From contig MU004235.1 in the NCBI GenBank assembly GCA_010405405.1, forward strand, positions 1,502,538 through 1,566,537: a stretch of DNA of 64,000 nucleotides, in the 5' to 3' direction. The DNA comes from Microthyrium microscopicum (Eukaryota). The notes beneath the pieces were generated by a model, which had not been told where the DNA came from, made no database searches, and saw nothing but the letters and a program-made list of their open reading frames with translations. Shown here piece after piece: positions 44,811 through 64,000 of the stretch (positions within the stretch are counted from its first letter, which is position 1; each line of letters starts with the position of its first letter). The position numbers and the translations under genes were made by a program.

Positions 44811-45399
44811 GGTGGTTATGGTGGAATTACTACGATTTGTCAGATGGTAAGCACTTGCAACCCTTGAGATAACAACTGACAGTTTGTCGGTGGCGAGTTT
44901 GCAAGTATTGGAAATTCTTCCTGTATTGCGGACAGCTTTTTCTAAACAACAAATGATTTGGTTTTTGGTTTTGTGGCGATTCAAAGAACGGAATTTCCGA
45001 TGCTTCAAATATTTACATCATTGCGTCAAACGGGTGTCTTAAATAAAAGCCACTCTAAACGATGTATGTGATTCAGCTGGTAAGGCATCAGATCCATCGT
45101 ACAACTGGGAGCAGTGAATTCAGCGTATTGCCCACTTTGCTGCAAGAGAATTCACTGGGTCTTCTTTTTGCATTTCACAATTGGCATAAACAATTTGTCT
45201 GTCTCAACACTGTTCGGAAGCTAGTGTTTGTGTCTGATCAGAAATGGACGAAATAAGATGCGTCCGCCAGCCACTTCCATAATCCTCATCAGCGTCGTTT
45301 GATGACAGAGTGCTTTACTCCCAGTTGAATCCGTGGCTAGCAGGTAGGACACTTCAATCAGAAGTTTCTTCTGTCTACCTAAGAGGTAGGTAAGCATAG

Positions 45400-48300
45400 A
45401 TGGCGACCCTCGAGGCCCTTAAGTCGGCCCTTCAACACAAAGCTCAGGCTACGGAGACAGTAAACGCGCAGGCATTATCTGAAGCACAATACAGCGCCGG
45501 CTTTGAAGTCTTCGTGCAGGACTCTGGATGGTTGACTTACAGAAACTTCATCATTCCTCAGCTCTCACAGTCGATGGCCTCTCTTCTTAGCTCTCGTAAG
45601 AAAATTTCGGTATTAGAGATTGGACCCGGTCCGAAGAGCGTGCTGGGATATCTTCCGGAGGATCTGAGGAAGAATGTAAGATGCCCGTGTCAGAAATTCT
45701 GGGCCCCATTCGAAACAGCAAAACCTGTGGTCCCCGGCAGTATATCCGACGGCATCCATTGTCATGTTCTAACAAATTCCAGGTCAAAAAATACACAGCT
45801 TTTGAGCCCAACGGTTTGTATGCTGTAACTCTAGAAGAATGGCTTGGCTATGCTTCCGGCCAAACGTCCCCACTACCGAACCTAGATCATCCGCCCAATA
45901 TCCAACAGGTTCCTTTCGAAAAGAACGATAATGATGAAAAGTATGACATCGTCTGATTCTGCCACAGCATGTACGGCATGAAGCCTAAACGCAAGTTCAT
46001 CGAACAGGCATTGGAAATGCTTACTGAGGAGCCACAACAAGGAATGGTGGTGATATTTCATCGTGAAGTCGACTTGCAACTTGAAGGCTTGGTATGTCAT
46101 CGAACAGCTTCATATCCTACCGGAGTCGTCAGTGTGCGAGATGAAGATAAAGTGATCGATGAATTCGCTCCGTTTGTGGCGGGATACATCCTACAGAATG
46201 GCGACTCTGGTAAGGCCGTCCGGAAGATATGGCGGGAGGAGTGCCGCGCCTTAGGTCGTCACGAAGATGCACCCCCGAACCATCTTCTTTTCAGTGACCC
46301 AAACATCATGGTGGCCTTTAATCCACATGCTACCAAGCTTTCGGAGCTGACGGCTACTGTGCCACTATATGACGGAAAAAAGTCGATCAAAAATCCAGAA
46401 GCTCGTCACTGCAAGCCCGCTGCGATCGTTAGACCGACAGAGGTGCAACATGTCCAGCAATGTGTCAAGTGGGCTATAAAGCACGATACTGGATTGACAA
46501 TTATTGGTGGTGGTCACAGCGGACACTGCCTCTGGCCTAATGTGGTGGCGGTTGACATGAGTGCTTTTAATCAACTTCACATATTGGATTTGGCGAAAGA
46601 CGAGGTGGCGATCTTGCCCGATGCCAAATATTTGGTGGTCGCCGGAGCTGGCTGCACAACAGGCGACATCATCCGCAATACTATGCAATTTGGCGTGACA
46701 GTTCCGCTAGGCGCTCGTCCAAGTGTTGGAGCAGGATTGTGGCTTCAAGGCGGCATTGGGCACTTATATCAGTCTCATGGTCTTGCGTGCGATGCTATTG
46801 TGGGCGCCGTTATGGTGAGCGTTGATTCTGGCCAAGTCCTCCACATCGGCTATGTACCTCGTGAGCACCGACCGCCTGGCTCCGTTCGCCCCGAGAATGA
46901 ACGTGATCTATTATGGGCCATCAAAGGTGCTGGGACCAATTTTGGCATCGTGGTCACTGTAATCTTCAAAACAGATGCGGCTGCGACCTACGCGATTCGA
47001 AATTGGGCTCGTCCGTTGGAGGAGTACGTCGGAGACGACATCGACCACTTCAGTCAGTCCGCAACCTGGGTTCCTCAACAATGCTCCATGGACGGGTATC
47101 TCTACATGGATGCTGGCAAATTGCATCTTGGCATTAGCCTGATCGAATATTCCACGACCAACCTGGACTTCGAAGAAAGTGAGAGGTACGCCGGGAACAT
47201 GAGCATCAGTTGGAAGTCAAAACCTAATCTCAAGATTGCTGATGGCTTGAAGATGTTTGAAAGTGAGATGCATATGACATCGTTGCACGGCGGGCACGCA
47301 AGCGGCAAGACTTCCTCCTTCAAGCGATGTCTATTTCTAGATAACATCGGTCACCACAGTCAGCACGACACCTCTCGCCTTTTAGCAGAAGCGATGCGGA
47401 GCAGTCCCACACAGCTTTGCTACATTCATCTGCTGAAAGGTGGTGTTCGACCGCGAAATATGGGTGACATTAAGAATACCACTACTGCTTTCGGCAATCG
47501 TATCCTCTGGGATTTCGCCTGTATCATAACGGGTGTTTGGCCTCGTGAGCAAGACGGCACCGAAATTGCACAACGAACTGTGCGGTGGGTGTATAAAGTC
47601 GCTCAAACCTTGCTACCGGCAAGTCGAGGAGTTTATAGTGCCGATCTTGGCCCAGATCCTAGAGATGTGGAGTTGGCGGTAAAGGCTTTTGGTCCAAACC
47701 GGCCTCGCCTGATCGATCTCAAAGATGCCTTAGACCCGCACAATGTCTTGGCCTATGCATGTCCATTTCCAAAGACTTCGATGAGACAGAGACTCATAGT
47801 CCTTGTCACAGGAGAAAGTGGCGTTGGCAAGGACTACTGTGCGAACGCCTGGGCCTCTGATCTCATCAAGAGTGGGTTCACGGCGCGCGTGGCTAGCATC
47901 AGCGATGCTATAAAGCGGCAATATGCAAAGACCACAGGCTCCGATCTGAGTCGCTTGCTTTCGGATCGTGGCTACAAAGAGCAGCACCGATTAGCGCTTA
48001 CAGAATTCTTTCAGAAACAAGTTCTAAAACGACCAGAGCTGCCGGCCGAGAACTTCCTAGACGTAGTGTCCAAATATGGGGAAGTAGATGTCCTCTTCAT
48101 AACCGGAATGAGAGACGACGCACCGGTCGCAACCTTCTCACATCTAATACCTGAAAGCAAGGTTGTTGACTATCGCATCAAATGTAATAGAGCAACGCGG
48201 CGGAGTCGTGGGGTCCACGTTGAGAGTGATGGGCGCGACAAAGATATTGACAAAACCGAGTCAGGCTTAATGCTCCCAAAATACCTCCCCACTCTCATCT

Positions 48301-48980
48301 ACATCAACGATGAGACAAGAAACATGGGCATATATCCGCCGGCCAAAGCTTTTCTATACATGTTCCTCCACGAGAAGCTGCAGCGACTAGGCCGTATGGT
48401 GAATTCAATGTCCGATTTTCCACGACCAGGCGTTGAGTTTCGTCATGTGCTTGGTATCGCAGAGGCGCCGGGTGGCTTGAATCTGTGCGCGTCTTTACTC
48501 GAAGACCTATTCGGAAGTACAGGGGACTGGACAAAGGTGGACGCAATTGTGAGCTGTGAGGCCGGCGGCTTTGTCTTTGCTTCGACATTAGCTTCGCGGC
48601 TTTCAGACCGTGCAGGGGATGACAAGACCGTGGTGCTAATCCGTGAAGCGGGCAAAATCCCGCCGCCCGCGATTTCTGTTGCTAAGCCGGCATCCAATAT
48701 CTCGTCTAGGGGAATCGACAGTTCCAATGAGAAACGGATTGAAATAGGACGAGACGTGATCCCAAGGGGCGCGTCAGTGGTGGTCGTGGACGACGTACTT
48801 GCCACTGGGAGAACGCTGTGTGCAGTTCTGGAGCTACTAGGCAAAGTTGGCATCGACGCGGAGAAGATCAGTGTCATGGTTGTGGCGGAGTTTCCAGTTC
48901 ATCGTGGTCGGGAACTGTTGCGCCAACGTGGGTTTGGTAAAGTCAATGTCCAGAGCCTCCTGGTCTTTGGCGGTGAGTAG
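45400..48980 (+). CDS. Multidomain fusion: SAM methyltransferase-like + BBE-type FAD oxidoreductase + phosphomevalonate-kinase-like P-loop domain + APRT-like phosphoribosyltransferase; in-frame TGA at 45954-45956
   Basis: Methyltransferase VLEIGPGP..YTAFEPN..YDIV*FCHSMY (intron 45676-45782). FAD domain PAAIVRP..IIGGGHS..VGAGLWLQGGIG..DLLWAIKGAGTNFGIV..LDPHNVL. Kinase GESGVGKD..ISDAIKRQYA..LLSDRGYKEQHR. PRTase DFPRPGVEFR..EAGGFVFA..VVVVDDVLATGRTL. Confidence 0.85.
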
Positions 48981-54538: not shown

Positions 54539-55053
54539 CATGCATCAGTCTTATGTATGCCCCATCGGAAATACCTTTCTCCGTCCATCTATCTGGTAAA
54601 GATGAATTGGCACGTTTCTGTAAAGTATACATAACGTCTTATTTGCTGCGTCAAACTACCAGGTGCTTTACGTCCATCAGATACGTAAATCTCTCCACTT
54701 CATATCGAATACGCTGAGAATCAAAGCATATTTTACTTTAAAAGGTGCGATGGGAGACATCTTCGGTGATGGGAGCGCGCGCTAATTGTCCATCGCCTAT
54801 TTTCAGCCTCAAAGTAGGTTCAACCAATCAATGGTCTTCATCAAAATTCAACTTTTGAAACAAACCAGCTGCCTTGTTGCCTGTTTCCATCATCTCAACT
54901 TCCAACTGACAACTTGAGCTTGCAATTCACAACCAGCACTTTAACATAAAACTTGCAATCCACCGAGCGTGTATCCAACAGCAAAACCATCATCTGGCCT
55001 TTGGTACTCTCCAAATACGCATTTTCAAGCGTCCAGAAGAGACGATATCCAAT

Positions 55054-56268
55054 ATGACAGACATTCAAGCTCCGCCAGCTCAGGCGCATTCAGCAGCCAA
55101 CGACTCTATGTCCGCCGATGAAATCGCTTTGTATGATCGTCAAATCCGTCTGTGGGGAGTCCAGGCCCAAGAGTATATTCGCAAGGCCAATGTTCTCCTG
55201 ATATCAATGAAGGCTCTAGCCAATGAAGTAGCCAAGAATCTAGTTCTAGCCGGCATCAACACCCTCACTATCATCGATCACGAACTAGTCACTGAAGAGG
55301 ACCTCGGGGCCGAATTCTTCGTCTCGATGGAAGATGTTGGAAAAAACGTAAGCCAATTGACCATCTATATCGACTATCACTGACAGCCATTTCAGCGAGC
55401 AATGGCAGCGGCTCCACGCATCTCAGAATTGAATCCACGTGTAAAGGTGTTTGCAGACAACGACTCCATCGCCGACAAACACGAATCCTACGTCAAGGAC
55501 TTCGATGTCATCATAGCCACGGATCTAAACTTCAAAACCATGACTGTCCTCAACGCTGCCTGTCGTCTAGCCAACAAACCCTTCTACGCTGCCGGCTCCC
55601 ACGGGTTCTATGGCTTCATCTTCGCGGACCTGATTTCCCACGATTTTATCCACGAAGAAACAGACTCACATAGCACCCGCATCGCCAATACCAAGGAGTC
55701 CGCAACCCGTACCGTCATCAACGTGGAAGTCACCAAAGAAGGCAAAAGCACCCGCCAAATCGTAACACGCCGCGAAATGTACTCGCCCATGATATTGGCC
55801 AACACTTCACCCCTCCCACCAACATTCCGGCGCAATCGGCTCGCAAAAGTTACACCTCTCCTCTCCTGTCTGCGCGCCCTCTGGGATTTCGAAGAACATT
55901 CTGAAGCCCACCACGTCCCCCAACCCAACAGCGCATCCGATATCGCTAAATTTACCTCCCTCGCGACTGAAAAGCATACTTTGCTGAACCTTCCCCGCGA
56001 GACGCTCAAGGCTGAGTTCCTTCGGAAGTTCTTGCAGAATGTGGGCTCCCAGATCGCACCAGTCACTGCCATGTTGGGTGGTTTACTAGGCCAGGACGTG
56101 ATTAACGTCATTGGAAAGCGCGAACAGCCGATCCAGAACTTCTGTCTGTTCAACGGAGACGATTACGATGTGCCTGTGTTTGCACTTCATCCAGTGAACT
56201 TTGAGAAAGAGGGTGAGAAGAGCACGAAATTAGAGACGGCGGTGGAGGGGATGGTTGTTGTTGATTAA
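55054..56268 (+). CDS. AOS1: SUMO-activating enzyme E1 subunit 1 (Aos1/Rad31); 2 exons
   Basis: SADEIALYDRQIRLWGVQAQ, LANEVAKNLVLAGI, AAAPRISELNPRV, APVTAMLGGLLGQDVINV..EQPIQNF. Intron 55348-55395. Confidence 0.94.
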
Positions 56269-56585: not shown

Positions 56586-57320
56586 TTATGCTGACCTACT
56601 CGAGGATAACTGACGACCAGACCGCCTGTATTCAGCTTGCTCGCCCAAGTATCTGTTGTTCTCCTCCAGCAGCTCGATGATCTTGGCCTGCTGAGCAGCC
56701 TGTTTACCCACAGGGTCCACCCGATAACGCTGGGCGCCAATGTCCATGGCAGAGTTGCTCATAGAGCTTAACAGGTATGTTGGCGACGGTTCGTCTTGTC
56801 CAGAATGGATGTAGAAGAACTGTGTATCCTGATGGCCAAAGCTGGATTGGCATTATGTCAGCGTTTTTTAACAAGGTAAAGATAGATTAGAGGAGCTTAC
56901 GCGCTGATGAGGGCGTTCACTTGTGCGGCTAAGCTTTTGACTCGTGCGGCGGTCTCGTCGCTTGGCTGCTCGTGGTATGCGTTGATGGCTGAGGCAAGGC
57001 CTGGCCGATAGGTGAGACTGATTTCATGTGGTATCTTGGAGGTTTGGTCAGTTTTATAGTATAGGGGTTGTGGTGATGCATACTTCGAAGCAGTTCAAGG
57101 CATTGGCCCGGCAGAAAGAGCATCGCACGGGCTGGAGGCCTGGATGGGCGGAGTGTAACACGATACCTGGTCCTAATGCTTCGATCCCCTCCTTGTTGAA
57201 TTGGCAATCATTCTGGAGATTGCCGAAATTTGTGATATAGTGTGGTAAGCAGCGGACACATGGGTTGAGTGTACCTTTGGTCTGGGTGTGAGGTAAATCT
57301 GAGCGATTGCTTAGATTCAT
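56586..57320 (-). CDS. Small six-cysteine (expanded Zn2Cys6-like) protein, copy 1; 3 exons
   Basis: Introns 57035-57083 and 56842-56900. Product MNLSNRSDLPHTQTKGTLNPCVRC..C..RCSFCRANALNCFE|IPHEISLTYRPGLASAINAYHEQPSD..|FGHQDTQFFYIHSGQDEPSPTYL..QQAKIIELLEENNRYL..RSA*. Supported by the paralog at 61005-61749. Confidence 0.8.
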
Positions 57321-57719
57321 GGTAGAACAGGCGAGTTGAAGGGACGGGATTGAGAATGGTGAAAGGGAGAAGACTTGATGGTAGACTCCTGTTGGGAATG
57401 GTAGCACTTTAATACAGTATTATCAAACATTAGGTAAGGTTATTGACAAAGAAGATGGAACGGACTAGATCACATATTTGCTGTAATCTTTCCAGATGGC
57501 AGCATTTGTCTTTGATTGCAATCAATACTAGCTGCTTTGTTCAATGGCAACTCTAGGCAAACATAATCTCCATAACACAGGATGGCTATCCCTCCTGTAT
57601 ACCACAGTAGGCACTAGCATGTCGATATGTCATGGGCCACCAAACTTCCGACTTTGACATTGTCGATAGTCTGTTAACATGTCGCGGAAGTACGCTCGAA
57701 AAATAATGTCGTATTCTAG

Positions 57720-58702
57720 TCATGACCCACTATCACTACCACTTTGATTGGAATCGTCTCGGCGATGACTTCTCAACTTCCTCACATATAGATCGTTTGG
57801 TGTCGCCCGGACTTGTGTAAGAATTCCAGATGACTCGATCATCTCGTCAAAAGCATAGAGATCACTATTCTTTGTAATCCTTGATTGTCTTGGCCCCATC
57901 AGATCCACTCGCCAATGTGGCTCCGTCCACGCATTATCAAAGTCAACCAACAAGCCGTTCTTGTAATTTCGTTCTATGATATCTCTTTGAAACACAAGAG
58001 ACCCTCTCAGCTTCTTCAAGTCTTCTAGCATCGTCTTTGGCTCCTTGATAGATATCTCAGTGTTCTCGAATCTTTTTACCAATGCTCGGAAAGGCAGTCT
58101 TTTCTTCACGGGGTGTTTCTTGTTCTCAATTGATCTGTTCCAAAATGTGATTCCATACTTTTCGGCGAGGATTTCTTCGTATGGATCTGCTGCTACGGCC
58201 ATGTAGCCATAGCAAGGTACCGCAAGTTCCTTCGCCGTCGGTCTCTTCGTTTGACCTGTCCCCTTTGATTGACTACGTTTTGCGTGCTTTTCTTCAGCTT
58301 CTTTTATTCTTCCGTAAGCCCTGCACTCAGCGAAAAAAGGGTCAGAATGAAAAGTGAGTTTTTCACCAGACACGCGCTTTCTCCAAGTAACTCCTATGCT
58401 CTGTTGAGCGAATTCTAGATCGAAGAACTTGAACTATGATTTCGAGTCAGCTTTTATTCTAGAACAGTACCGCGATTCCTGTTAGAACTAACGATCTTGA
58501 GGGCATATATTTTTCTGTTGATGATCACTTTGAAAACATAAGCGCCATGGCGTTGAGGTGAGGTGGAGGTCTCATCCTCAAGGTGACTGAGGATATCCAA
58601 AAACTCAATCTTTCTATTCCGGTCTTTGAACGGTTGTAATCGGGGGCCTGTGCATGATATCGGAGGTAACGGTTCATTGCTTCTAAGATCATATTGAGCC
58701 AT
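57720..58702 (-). CDS. Protein-kinase-like fold protein of the fungal 'FTA2-domain' type; 2 exons
   Basis: Intron 58434-58492 (gttagt..gctgac..tag) joins GAYVFKVIINRKIYALKI|FKFFD..DPFFAECRAYGRI..AVPCYGY..PFRALVK..FQRDIIERNY..LLVDFDNAWTEPH. Confidence 0.82.
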
Positions 58703-59395
58703 GGAGTAGATGTATGGACAATACTAAAGTGTCAATTCTGGTGGCATATACCTTGTTCGAGTATTGCTTTCCATTGAAGATACATCCTATTTTGAGCCCA
58801 TTGACCCGATAGCCGGAAGTTGTCTTCTTTGGGAGCACTGCAGCTTGTGTTACGATAAGATCGGTAGCTCAAAGCTCCATTGGGCTAAAAAAGAGAGAAC
58901 TGTATGCATTACCCGCATAAGTCACCCCTGAAAGCATCGGAATAATTTGAAGTCAGGTCCAACTTTTATTTCTACTGGGAAGCAAGCTTTGAGAAACTGT
59001 AGGTCGTAAATTGATATCTCAATCATACAATTCGCAAATTCGAACCTATTAGACAAATTTATGATATGCTATTTGATTTATCTGTTGATGAGTTATCTCA
59101 TGAAATAGTAAGAAACGTACCTGTTAGGTGATCCTTCGATGCAGGATCCAACCTGCTTCTCTCCAAATGGAGAACATGCCCCCGGCTCTGTTGCTGATGA
59201 CTCAAGCCAGTACTCGCTTATCTATCTGCTAAAGTCCTTACCTATTCGCGTCAGGCGATATACTGGTATTAGAAGGCATAACTTGAAGTCTATGATTAGT
59301 ACTGCGGCTGGCTATTAGATCTTTCATACCTGTGTAGCTACGAGATACATCTGAACTCTCAATTGCCTGTCGAATACAGCTGTTGGAGACCAGCT

Positions 59396-60737
59396 ATGTC
59401 CAGGCGATCGACTAGTAGTGGCACAACCCTCCTTGATTACCTTCGGCAAGCTAATCCTACAGTATGGTGTAAAGGAGATCAGAGCTCCAGTGGTGAGTAC
59501 CTAGCCACTCCGACTACTTAGTACTTTGTCCATGCAAGTTTCACTTCCAAAGAGTGTTAACATGACTTTAGCCGGCTCCACCAAACATGAGGATTATCCA
59601 ACTCCAAGTCGAGTAAAGCGATGGAAAGAGTTCAAGCTCACCAATATCAGGAAGATCTTTGACAACGCCATTGACTTGGCCTTGAAAGATACCCCTACGG
59701 AAGCTTTTAGAACTATCGATTCCGGACCTGTCGAACTGAATGACATCTTCAAAGAAGACTGCTTAAACAGTGTTATCATTCGATCTATCCAACCGATCAC
59801 TGTAGAAGCACTGTCTAAGACATCGCAAGCAATCGTTGAGAAGGATATATTTATGCATCGTGGCACCGCAGCAAAACTTCCAAGTAAATCTAGATTCCAG
59901 CCAGACTGGGCAGGGAAGACTTCCTTGCGTGGAGACATCAATGCTCTGCCAGGCGACACTAAAGTCAGCAAAAGTTGGACCAGCCTGATGTTCAAAACTC
60001 AGCTCAACAGCAAAGGAGAGATCAAATATGAGAAATCCCCCTATGTGTGGCCAGTACGCCAAGTCTTCCACTATTGCATCAAAACCCATTCCCGGTACGG
60101 CTTTATCATTACTGATGCAGAACTCGTGGTTTTACGGTTTGGTTTGGCAAGCCAACAGAATGGCCAAGCAAGCGTGGAGAAAATAAGAGAATACATTGAA
60201 GATGATGGTTATGCAGAGTGGCAGTCTATTCCATGGAAGCATGATAGCGATAATACTGGATCATTGAGCATCAATCTCGCCTTGTGGGTTCTACATCTCC
60301 TCGCTGTAAACAATGGTTTTCTCGAGAGCAATTACGGCAAGTTGAGTGAAGAAGTGAAACGACCAAATGCAGAGCTCATACAACAACATAAAGAAGTCAT
60401 GGCATGTTTGGAACCCTTGTCAGGAAAAGAGACTGACGTGGAAGATGAAGTCGAGAGTGGACAGCGAGCAGCATCGATCGCATCACGAGCAGAGTCTCAA
60501 CGAAGTGATGCCTTACCCAGTCCCGACGAACGAGCGGCTGACGATCCATACCGAGCCAGCTTTCAGAGCTCATCCAATTTCGACAGCAATGCTCGCACTC
60601 CCTTTGTCGGAAGCTTTGTTTCTGAGGGTAGCACAACTCGAAGCAGAAAGAGACGTCAGGAGGCAATGCAAGATGAAACCCCAAACGGTTCACAGAAGCG
60701 ACGCCTGAGAAAGGATAGTGGAAGTACTTCTATTTAA
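59396..60737 (+). CDS. PD-(D/E)xK restriction-endonuclease-fold protein with disordered basic C-tail; 2 exons
   Basis: ATG 59396, intron 59493-59571 (gtgagt..ttaac..tag). Motifs FQPDWAG..ALPGDTKVS, PVRQVFHYC..SRYGFIITDAELVVLRF, SIPW..LSINLALWVLH. Tail RSRKRR/QKRRLRK is NLS-like. The fold assignment is by motif only. Confidence 0.75.
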
Positions 60738-61004
60738 CAGGAAACCAAGCGAGACGCTTGGGGGATACTCTCATTGTCTGTGACGTCTGCCAAAACACCT
60801 GTTAAGGAGAGAGGCTCTAACTCCACGCGCTTGATGTCTGCCGAGATATGTCATGTCAACATGTTTTCATATTCGATCGCGTCACCAGAAGAAGGAAAAA
60901 GCTTCGACAGTTCAGTCATGTCAATTCTAGCCATTGATTCTGATCCCAAAACCGATTTCGCAACGCTCGCTGAAAAGAGGAAGCTAATCTCTCTCTTAGT
61001 ATTA

Positions 61005-61749
61005 CTACCTGATTATCTGATAACGAAGCCTCTCGTTTTGGTTCATTCCCAGCTCACGTAACTCTCGAAGTAACCTAGTATTCTCCTCCAACAACGTAGC
61101 CAGCTTCACTTGATGTGCTTGATTTTCCGCCTCAAGCTTGCTTTGTTTGTCCAATGCGTAGTAATGATACTTGCTGCTGACTTCAAAGAATTCTTTCCTC
61201 ACAGGCTCGATGTAGGTGGGCGTGGCTGTATCTTTGCCAGAATGAAGATAGAAGTTCTTTCTTGCTTCGGCTTGGTAGCCAAACCTAGGGTCTGATTAGC
61301 AACATTGGGGATGCCCATACAAAAGAGCGGTATGATTACATATTCCACAGAGATTCCACCCGCAAGGCATGAGCTCTAACTACTGCAGCGTTGATGTCAT
61401 TTGGGTCTTTGTGATAGACCGAGATTGCTCCAGCCAGCTCCTCTCGAGCTTTGCAATCAACACCTGTTGAGACCTGATCCCTACTTTTAGTTGACACCAT
61501 ATAATATAAATCAATACTCACCTCGAAACAGTTTGTGCGAAACTTGCAGCACAGAGAACATCTGACAGTATGAGGCGTCGGATTTTTGGAACTTGTCACG
61601 ACACCTGGAGCAATCTCCACTACGTCCTTTTCAAATTGACATTCGTTGACAAGCTGACCAAAATTAAATGCGTAGTCTTGAAGACAGGAGACACAAGGAT
61701 TTAGAGTCCCCTTGCTCTGATTATGCTTGTCAGTGGATCGATTGTCCAT
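61005..61749 (-). CDS. Small six-cysteine (expanded Zn2Cys6-like) protein, copy 2; 3 exons
   Basis: Introns 61474-61521 and 61285-61339 at the same positions and phases as copy 1. Product MDNRSTDKHNQSKGTLNPCVSC..C..RCSLCCKFRTNCFE|VSTG..LAGAISVYHKDPND..|FGYQAEARKNFYLHSGKDTATPTYI..HQVKLATLLEENTRLL..IIR*. Confidence 0.8.
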
Positions 61750-63622
61750 GTTAAACTCAAGTAATTTCCGAACAAAATCGAAGTGATGGAATAAAATCAG
61801 AGTTGGGGGACGAAACGATGTTGTCGGGGAAGAACTTACCATTTATACTCAATAGAACCGTCACTAACTCCATTATGAGCGTTAGCAATCCCAAAGAATT
61901 TGAGTAAAGGTCTTGATTTCAGATTCTGATTTTCAATTGCGTACAAGTGGAAAATTCCTCTTTGAATAACAACAAAACGGCACAATGGTTTGAGTTATTG
62001 CTTCTGTAAGATGCAGTTGACGTATGGCTACGAGCTTTAATCTGATCACTGGCTTCCCATCGGCGGCGAAGGCGACCACGATGTCTTATGACAGAAGTAT
62101 ACCTACTTTTCCATCTTAATCATTATATTGAGCGAATACTTATTCACTCGATGAAAACAAAAAACCAATTAGGCGATCGTGGTACATGCATTCCATCCAT
62201 TTTTGTCGGTCATGACGAACCCAGGAGTTGCTCATGCTCCAAAGCCGCCAGGATGCGAATCGTTGAAGCGTAGTAGTTAGTAGTGTGTGCCAACACAAGG
62301 CGATATTTCAGTCAACTATACTTTGGCTCAAATCCAATTCAGTTTAGTGCTCATCCTCTGCTTGGCCGCCATCAACTTTACTCATGATTAAAATTTTGGC
62401 ATTTCAGTTTGCTCGTGCTCAACCCTGTCATTATTCCACGTTTGGGTCCTATTTATACTTAGTATAGAACTTTAGATTAATATTCCAAAGGATGCTGCCA
62501 CGGTTTGCTCATATCCGCATGTGACAAATCACTCCTCGTCCTTGTCAGTTGTCTTATTATGTCACTTTATGTGGTCTTTGCAATGTAAAAACTGGATCTA
62601 AAAATAGTCCAACGGCTTCGCACCGCACCGTCCCGACGCTTGGAAACGGGACGAGCTTGCAGGCTGTCCGCGAGTCAGGATGCCAATAAAAACGATCGTT
62701 CTTATTGGCTATCCCATCGTACCTTTTGCGCCACTGTCTCATCTCGAAAGGCACTGATTTCACGTTACATCTGCCAAGTGCTTGTCATCCTCCTTTCCCC
62801 CTCCTGAGCTTTTGAATGGAGCAAGCATGCGATATCACTTTGTAGACAGCTGAAGCAAAGCAAGCGCTTGAGCCATTTGGTGGAGCGACAGACATCAAGA
62901 TGACTATTATTCCAAAGAGTCGATTTTACCTCAGCCTGATACTTTACATGTTTGTGTGGTGTCAACGGACCCTGGCACAAAGCGATTGCCCGTCAGAAGA
63001 CCTTCTCGTTTACTCTCCTTTCAAACCATGGTTTTCATTTTATCAAGGATCAAGCCAAAGATGCTGGTCAGCCGCCATATGTTTATTCCAAGCAGCCGAT
63101 GAAGCAAGGAAGCAGCAATTCTCAGCAACTGCACTGATCATGGGACTGCTCCCGTTGACCCTAAAGGATATCGCTTGGCCTGAACGTAGACTTGTTCCAG
63201 TATCCCACCGATTACCAGTGTTGGCCGAGATTTTGGTTCGGGCGCTTAGTCTTGAACCTGTTGAAGTACATGGCAAAAATGAAGCAGAGAAACGGACAAT
63301 GACCGAGAGCTGGTTGACAATACATTCACCCAGCCTGGCTGATTGGGTTTGGAATCTGGAACAGAAGAGAATATTGTTCTACGTGGCGGGATCAACCCTC
63401 TCTCTGCTCCTTACATATGCCGCACTGGTGCTGGTGGAAGTCTATTCGAAACGCTCATCGCTCGGCTGCATATATCCAGCCTTCATTTTGACTTGGTACA
63501 TCGTAGCTCTCTTACCAGCTACAATTCACACACTGCTATCAAAACTGCGACATTCGAAACAGAAAAGAAAAGCCAAAGGCATTTTGGAAGCCAACCTCAA
63601 CATAGTCACTGCAGACACACCA

Positions 63623-64000
63623 ATGACACCACACCCAAACGATGTTGAAAGCGCTGGTGCAATAGTTTCTGTGATCAGCGAGCCAAGTTCATATCCTCGT
63701 AAGACCCATTCAACGCCTCTCGGGGCTCGCGATATCAAGAACCAAAACATCACACTGGCAGATCCAAGGACTTTGAGCCAAAACGGACAAAACAAGAGTC
63801 TCACTCGATCCCAGATAGCATCTGCCGTACAGGGAGCCGAAGAGTGGTGGATAGTCCAGCTCGTGTGGGCGATCTACTATATTGCTGGAACACTTGTTTT
63901 TACTTCCATCATGGCAGTCACGGTCATCGAACTGTTTGTTTGGGTCATGACTGGCTTTGCAGTAACTGGAGCAAGTAAACTGCTGGCGCTCTTGCTTTGT
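63623..64000 (+). CDS. Hypothetical membrane protein, truncated by the window end
   Basis: ATG 63623 stays open to 64000: MTPHPNDVESAG...WWIVQLVWAIYYIAGTLVFTSIMAVTVIELFVWVMTGFAVTGASKLLALLLC, with consecutive hydrophobic segments. Confidence 0.55.
   Translation, partial: MTPHPNDVESAGAIVSVISEPSSYPRKTHSTPLGARDIKNQNITLADPRTLSQNGQNKSLTRSQIASAVQGAEEWWIVQLVWAIYYIAGTLVFTSIMAVTVIELFVWVMTGFAVTGASKLLALLLC

Follow-up and report, generated by a model that had tools for sequence, protein, structure and literature searches.

A divergently transcribed kinase–nuclease gene pair in Microthyrium microscopicum and other fungi: a candidate two-gene counterpart of fungal killer proteins

Introduction

Do a putative kinase gene and a putative nuclease gene that are transcribed away from each other in the genome of the dothideomycete Microthyrium microscopicum form, together with the two cysteine-rich genes at their sides (Cys-gene 1 and Cys-gene 2), a killer-resistance system divided over separate genes? 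The four genes lie within positions 56586–61749 of a 64,000-nt stretch of DNA (hereafter the window), and an earlier interpretation made from the letters of that DNA (the sequence-only reading) had proposed that they constitute one cassette, analogous in function, without homology, to the Spok meiotic drivers of Podospora. All four genes were confirmed where that reading had placed them, whereas the unit that they were thought to form has changed.

The systems invoked for comparison are known from single polypeptides. In SPOK3, killing is attributed to a PD-(D/E)xK nuclease domain that requires K240 and carries a QxxxY motif, and resistance needs the cysteine cluster and the kinase domain; the best HHpred match of this nuclease is HsdR of V. 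vulnificus, and the role of the QxxxY motif in HsdR is taken here from the same source (PMC6660238). The C-termini of Crinkler proteins commonly combine a restriction endonuclease (REase) with a kinase, the former being thought the toxic part and the latter a regulator, with the nucleus as target (PMC5289972). What the sequence-only reading had said of Spok and Crinkler proteins agrees with these two sources. The nuclease–kinase architecture is described as widespread, and the mechanism by which the SPOK kinase confers resistance as still unknown, in a 2025 article in Genetics (PMC12693581).

The conserved pair

The kinase gene (57720–58702, minus strand) consists of exon 1 at 58493–58702, an intron at 58434–58492 and exon 2 at 57720–58433, stop codon included. 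The nuclease gene (59396–60737, plus strand) has an intron at 59493–59571 and encodes 420 amino acids (aa). Between the two start codons lie 693 bp (58703–59395), close to the 690 bp or so estimated earlier, which presumably serve as a shared promoter.

Metagenome contigs were scanned with the nuclease alignment; the best 80 of 135 confirmed loci, together 1,147,602 bases, form the sample for what follows, with the proviso that one metagenome assembly may mix several organisms. A kinase gene is present at 43 of these 80 loci, 41 of them recognized by a kinase hidden Markov model (HMM) made from the partner kinases and two, L036 and L041, by tblastn with exon 1 only, at contig ends. Every kinase match lies upstream of the nuclease on the opposite strand, with 603–1,443 bp between the matched parts (at L046, 1,880 bp separate the nuclease match from kinase exon 2), and this head-to-head order recurs at every paired locus with enough DNA. 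Neither the kinase HMM nor tblastn gave a further kinase match elsewhere among the 1,147,602 bases. The 37 loci at which the kinase was not found comprise seven with only 44–1,203 bp of upstream DNA (L014, L017, L020, L047, L049, L050 and L076), one true miss (L048, a nuclease fragment containing a stop codon, with 3.6 kb of upstream DNA and no kinase) and 29 that belong to a sister branch discussed below. In cluster mates of L014, L017 and L020, the kinase begins 1,163–1,217 bp upstream.

When the paired loci are clustered by 90% identity of the nuclease, they amount to 17 lineages, and with L046 and the window to 19 distinct lineages, no more than four of which fall under one assembly prefix. 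When open reading frames (ORFs) of at least 60 aa from the 19 regions were compared all against all, only the nuclease and the two kinase exons proved common to more than two lineages, the leftover ORF ‘families’ being alternative frames of these same genes. No 7-mer or 8-mer was common to 17 intergenic regions above the level of shuffled sequences. The conserved unit is two genes, the kinase and the nuclease, not four. The co-occurrence in other genomes that the sequence-only reading had called for is thus found for the divergent kinase and nuclease genes and fails for the cysteine family, which is missing from all 80 loci.

Over 18 lineages, identities range from 27 to 67% for the nuclease and from 30 to 73% for the kinase, and the two sets of identities are correlated (Mantel r = 0.80, with none of 5000 permutations as high). 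Two distinct paralogs each carry the names of Viridothelium virens and Trypethelium eluteriae, and further named members of the nuclease family come from Bogoriella, Karstenula, Icmadophila, Usnochroma and Xylaria; we take these taxa to cover the Dothideomycetes, Lecanoromycetes and Sordariomycetes. No account of an FTA2-kinase/nuclease gene pair was found in the literature; Zhang et al. (2016) or bioRxiv supplements might hold one.

The nuclease

The translation of 59396–60737 is identical to P0001, a ‘hypothetical protein’ of M. microscopicum. By exhaustive HMMER search, its family comprises at least 523 representative clusters, defined at 50% identity, at E ≤ 1e-3 and 244 at E ≤ 1e-10; the best 150 of the 523 are 184–505 aa long. 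No Pfam family was found on P0001 or on 95 aligned relatives, one stray weak match apart, and a sequence search of solved structures with the protein and its profile gave no usable match.

The AlphaFold2 model built from the 95-sequence alignment has a mean predicted local distance difference test score (pLDDT) of 82.1, 260 of its residues scoring 90 or more, and a predicted template modelling score (pTM) of 0.77. It predicts a folded domain over approximately residues 1–312, followed from about residue 315 by a disordered, basic C-terminal tail with a cluster resembling a nuclear localization signal. Within the domain, a helix at 94–121, strands at 125–129, 145–149 and 160–162, a helix at 192–203 and a strand at 208–212 follow one another as in the alpha–beta–beta–beta–alpha–beta core of the PD-(D/E)xK superfamily. 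The sequence motifs PDWAG (143–147) and GDTK (160–163) fall where that core would have them: D144 begins the strand at 145–149, D161 and K163 are at the strand 160–162, E94 is placed on the first helix, and Q196xxxY200 lies inside the helix at 192–203.

Compared with solved structures by Foldseek, the model returned nothing at E ≤ 1e-3; the top rows, despite their weak E-values, were DrdV, the putative restriction endonuclease domain 9y1l, DUF820 and BpuSI. The independent aligner VIA-align, in which Z below 8 may mean a common arrangement only, matched 13 solved chains at Z ≥ 5, of which 11 are restriction-type or REase-like and two are mitoribosomal proteins. BpuSI (3s1s) leads with Z 9.4 over 145 residues at a root-mean-square deviation of 3.1, followed by DrdV (7lo5, Z 7.7), the mitoribosomal protein 3j7y_5 (7.6), 9y1l (7.0), the mitoribosomal protein 7a5f_s3 (6.6), 3ijm (6.5), V. 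vulnificus HsdR (3h1t, 6.4), TT1808 (6.4), DUF820 (5.9), BsaWI (5.8), EcoR124I HsdR (2w00, 5.6), SgrAI (5.2) and NgoMIV (5.1). Some 40 of the 50 listed rows belong to the PD-(D/E)xK superfamily. Most Z values stay below 8, and it is because one superfamily dominates the list and the motifs are present that we assign the protein to it. The fold that the sequence-only reading had guessed for the product of the gene starting at 59396 is thereby upheld by the model, the structural matches and the conserved motifs.

Among the 95 relatives, E94 is kept in 93, D144 in 94 and K163 in 92, while position 161 is D in 70 and E in 23, a swap that the (D/E)xK definition predicts. Q196 (95 of 95) and Y200 (94) are conserved likewise, the QxxxY motif being that of the HsdR/type IIG-like subclass. 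By this signature, the protein is probably a catalytically intact PD-(D/E)xK enzyme. A basic cluster occurs within the final 80 aa of 86 of the 95 relatives and may act as a nuclear localization signal.

The kinase

Both exons of the kinase gene match the Pfam family FTA2 (PF13095), exon 2 with 80.8 bits and exon 1 with 34.4 bits at a cut-off of 30.2, and the partner kinases at L002, L044 and L046 match it with 83.8, 98.8 and 43.3 bits; for one of these three, WaaY, Pkinase and RIO1 match as well, though below threshold. The catalytic residues of a protein kinase are in place. The strand-3 lysine K69 (in YALK) is invariant in 18 partner kinase sequences, and the helix-C glutamate E36 (in ECRAYG), D151-x4-N156 and D164 are invariant in 16. 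The profile of exon 2 has weak matches (best E 0.016), nearly all of them to protein kinases, in which D151-x4-N156 and D164 align with the HRDxxxxN and DFG motifs of Cdc7 and of other protein kinases too. The family scores and the intact residues bear out the kinase-fold gene of FTA2 type that had been read from the sequence. FTA2 is described in Pfam as ‘Kinetochore Sim4 complex subunit FTA2’; the present kinase matches that family and yet keeps all its catalytic residues and has a nuclease for a neighbour, and nothing suggests a kinetochore role for it.

Transcript data speak for this gene. A 1,055-nt contig of the public run X1, the type of which was guessed, maps to 57638–58433 and 58493–58751 and omits exactly 58434–58492, which is bounded by GT and AG on the minus strand. 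Because the contig skips the predicted intron precisely, the kinase gene is transcribed and spliced; the coverage of X1 is limited to this gene and is uninformative on expression of the nuclease or the cysteine-rich genes. A complex prediction of kinase exon 2, kinase exon 1 and nuclease residues 1–320, run with no controls, gave scores of 0.01 and 0.30 against a mark of 0.34 and is uninformative on binding.

A sister branch with an altered active site

The sister branch comprises 29 loci (L051–L075 and L077–L080), which fall into 10 clusters at 90% identity. The encoded proteins have a long low-complexity N-terminus, as at L062:8660–10477, and are for the most part about 600 aa long (423 aa at L051). 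By hhalign (probability 99%, E 6e-18), the C-terminal half of these proteins is a homolog of the nuclease family, with the active site changed: L, I, V or F replaces D/E161 at all loci but L052, which keeps D161 and has lost D144, and from L053 onward Q196 has become H or R and Y200 has become V, C, L or F. These proteins may represent an inactivated and repurposed nuclease fold. No kinase was found at any of the 29 loci, at least 16 of which have more than 3 kb of DNA upstream of the ORF. Since the branch with the altered site has no kinase, the kinase is restricted to nucleases with an intact signature, a pattern suggestive of a tie between the kinase and nuclease catalysis.

Decay and selection

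In-frame stops interrupt the nuclease at three loci, L008 (one), L036 (three) and L045 (one, with the PDW motif also lost). At L008 (10100–10903), the stop comes just ahead of the QxxxY helix, and the lineage mate L003, from another assembly, is intact. The kinase is intact in L003, L008 and L045, and at L036 its exon 2 lies beyond the contig end. L035 (8258–8878; 9908–11272) is the only lineage with a pseudogene kinase, having four in-frame stops beside a stop-free nuclease; in the latter, the change E94G affects a residue that 93 of the 95 relatives retain. The ratio of nonsynonymous to synonymous substitution rates (dN/dS), calculated after Nei and Gojobori for close or syntenic copies with at least about 10 substitutions, ranges from 0.13 to 0.6 over both genes.

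The cysteine-rich genes

Cys-gene 1 (56586–57320, minus strand, three exons) and Cys-gene 2 (61005–61749, minus strand; P0005, 213 aa, which follows P0001 in the protein numbering of this genome) are paralogs, with 52% identity over the N-terminal cysteine region (tblastn E 9e-24). In Cys-gene 2, this region holds C19, C22, C37, C64, C67, C68 and C74 and is followed by a long C-terminal helix; the AlphaFold2 model of the protein has a pLDDT of 48, with helix 151–212 alone confident. The spacing C-x2-C-x14-C ... C-x2-C-C-x5-C is, as we take it, only half like that of a Zn(II)2Cys6 binuclear cluster. A Pfam scan of the exons of these genes at E ≤ 1 gave no family at cut-off and no match to a curated zinc finger, a word-based database search with the Cys-gene 2 protein returned only itself, and the protein-atlas scores of the two proteins (0.82–0.84) are below the useful range. 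Within the window, 44850–44990 gave a weak tblastn match (E 0.025) but lacks the cysteine pattern.

By tblastn at E < 1e-3, relatives of the family were found at none of the 80 loci, matches up to E 10 being weak and scattered, and the cysteine pattern was not found beside other kinase–nuclease pairs. The SPOK pattern C-x3-C-x13-C-x5-H-x7-H, even when loosened to C-x3-C-x10-16-C-x3-8-H-x5-9-H, is absent from the kinase exons, P0001, P0005 and exon 1 of Cys-gene 1. Neither the four-gene cassette nor the notion that the two cysteine proteins stand for the SPOK cysteine cluster survives these results, and on sequence grounds the two genes are lineage-specific local neighbours rather than part of the conserved pair.

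Comparison with known systems

The pair resembles the SPOK proteins (Spok1–4, Podospora) in joining a QxxxY-bearing nuclease to a kinase and in being multi-copy with pseudogenes, and HsdR 3h1t, the best HHpred match of SPOK3, is among the structures that fit the present nuclease model; for SPOK, these likenesses are drawn from PMC6660238. The differences are substantial: SPOK is a single polypeptide, whereas here two genes lie on opposite strands, the present kinase is assigned to Pfam FTA2 and not to the SPOK kinase family, and the present proteins have neither the SPOK cysteine cluster nor any N-terminal coiled-coil repeat that we could see. A protein-atlas search with nuclease residues 1–315 recovered its own family at 0.97 and, scoring 0.93 with 190 features in common, a cluster that has SPOK2_N (PF27653) on 76% of its members; this second match is under the naming bar. 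The structure rows of the atlas list SPOK2_N clusters with template modelling scores (TM, by query) of 0.68–0.71 over 262–280 residues, likewise under the naming bar, one of them a cluster of 772 aa with a Kdo-type kinase. As a lead only, the nuclease may be related to the SPOK N-terminal domain, in which case the earlier caution of analogy without homology may have been too modest.

Crinkler proteins such as CRN8 of P. infestans are alike in coupling a nuclease of the REase superfamily with a protein kinase, according to PMC5289972. A Crinkler is a single secreted or translocated protein with an N-terminal header, in contrast to the separate genes found here; the present nuclease has no Pfam match, the header included (the presence of a Crinkler model in the scanned library was unchecked), and the present module comes from saprobic and lichen-forming ascomycetes. 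In the protein atlas, again under the naming bar and as a lead only, a Crinkler + Pkinase cluster reaches TM 0.61 and Pkinase_fungal clusters reach 0.46–0.53 against the nuclease domain. As a separate observation, these rows hint that several fungal kinase families (Pkinase_fungal/FunK1-type, Crinkler + Pkinase) carry an unrecognized REase-like N-terminal domain.

With type IIG/IIL and type I restriction nucleases, the nuclease shares the D...(D/E)xK...QxxxY layout, and they provide its best solved-structure matches. Unlike the fungal nuclease, which has roughly 90 further residues at its N-terminus as well as C-terminal helices and the basic tail, those enzymes come from bacteria and are joined to methylase or motor modules; sequence identity is 9–14%.

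What the pair might do

We consider that the pair may be a kinase-controlled, toxin–antidote-like conflict module, the two-gene counterpart of the SPOK and Crinkler fusions, and give this a probability of about 0.5. In this reading, the genes for an active FTA2-type kinase and for the PD-(D/E)xK nuclease are expressed in opposite directions out of a single short intergenic stretch and have been passed on and duplicated as a unit across Pezizomycotina. The nuclease would cut DNA inside the nucleus and be potentially harmful, and the co-expressed kinase would control it, most likely restraining it by phosphorylation of the nuclease or of its target. With a harmful nuclease and a restraining kinase, the pair would be a toxin–antidote-like module. 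In favour of this reading count the modelled fold and conserved motifs of the nuclease, the invariant kinase residues, the recurrent pairing, the correlated divergence, the kinase-less branch with its altered site, the decayed nucleases beside intact kinases, the presence of several copies, and the SPOK and Crinkler precedents. A bolder version holds that the pair is a true two-piece Spok homolog, widespread in Pezizomycotina, in which a nuclear nuclease would be the toxin and a dedicated kinase the antidote, that SPOK arose by fusion of such a pair or the pair by the reverse, and that some copies are spore killers or vegetative addiction modules; this we think unlikely for the present, while keeping it in view.

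Such a natural split of nuclease and kinase would let each part be expressed, mutated and purified alone. Phosphorylation of the nuclease, or of its target, by the kinase could then be probed directly, and it could be traced whether single-gene killers came from the fusion of such pairs. The pairing moreover gives a function-linked context to two uncharacterized groups, a nuclease family without a Pfam entry, which counts 523 clusters or more, and the adjoining FTA2 subgroup.

Several observations weigh against a toxin–antidote-like module. At L035, the kinase has decayed beside a stop-free nuclease, which is the wrong order for a simple toxin–antidote pair. The dN/dS values, though based on few substitutions, indicate purifying selection of the ordinary kind and give no hint of an arms race, and any two linked genes would be expected to show correlated distances. 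The split of the nuclease family into active and dead branches is a single evolutionary event. No fused nuclease–kinase was found, the longest of the best 150 relatives (of 523) having 505 aa; nor is there a relative at 885–2525 aa, which is weak evidence, the range of about 700–885 aa being covered by the best 150 alone. In the window, the pair sits amid housekeeping genes (cyclin, proteasome ATPase, E2, ThiF), and a search for flanking repeats or mobile-element ends around it gave only short repeats at chance level.

Much of this would suit an enzyme of normal cellular DNA processing that is regulated by a kinase of its own and serves, for example, in repair, recombination or development: both genes are under purifying selection, their surroundings in the window are of the housekeeping kind without signs of mobile elements, transcripts of the kinase turn up in an ordinary assembly, and the nuclease of L035 has stayed free of stops next to a broken kinase. 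Against it speak the facts that a single assembly or named species can hold several divergent paralogous pairs, that pseudogenes are scattered over lineages and that the surroundings of the pair are unrelated from one lineage to another. Dispensable genes with fast turnover therefore fit better than a core pathway, and we regard a cellular role as rather improbable. The loss of the kinase at L035 would also be harmless if the kinase activated the nuclease, the pair then being a cell-death or immune effector triggered by non-self or stress with the kinase as its sensor or activator. The pairing, the co-divergence and the active-site data apply equally to this idea, which is set back by the SPOK and Crinkler precedents, where the cited sources assign the kinase a restraining or regulating part, and by the decay of the nuclease first with the kinase kept (L008 and L045), which it does not predict; we hold it to be improbable.

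That all four genes form one cassette, with the cysteine proteins in the part of the SPOK cysteine cluster, is suggested by the way in which paralogous cysteine-rich genes tightly flank the pair in the window. With no cysteine relative at any of the 80 loci, no such pattern beside another pair, the SPOK pattern absent, and no family, fold or relatives found for the cysteine proteins, this has become very improbable. A chance meeting of kinase and nuclease can practically be dismissed. FTA2-family genes are numerous in these fungi, and nothing else favours chance. Orientation and spacing are alike in 43 loci and 19 lineages, and no kinase occurs elsewhere in the 1.15 Mb; because the arrangement is found in 18 further distinct lineages, it is not accidental. 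A toxin–antidote-like module is the reading that we retain for the pair.

Surroundings in the window

Upstream of Cys-gene 1 lies a gene at 54910–56268 (plus strand) whose Pfam ThiF match is the basis on which its product fits an AOS1-type E1 subunit. Other genes of the window are likewise of the housekeeping kind and include those for a cyclin, a proteasomal AAA ATPase, an E2 enzyme, SARAF, a sulfate permease and PIG-X. Just past Cys-gene 2, a long open frame without a Pfam family (62846–64000, plus strand) encodes several hydrophobic stretches and runs off the end of the window. Farther upstream, 45957–48977 (plus strand) forms one stop-free frame of 1007 aa with Pfam matches to FAD_binding_4, P-mevalo_kinase and Pribosyltran, an unusual combination of domains if this is a single gene.

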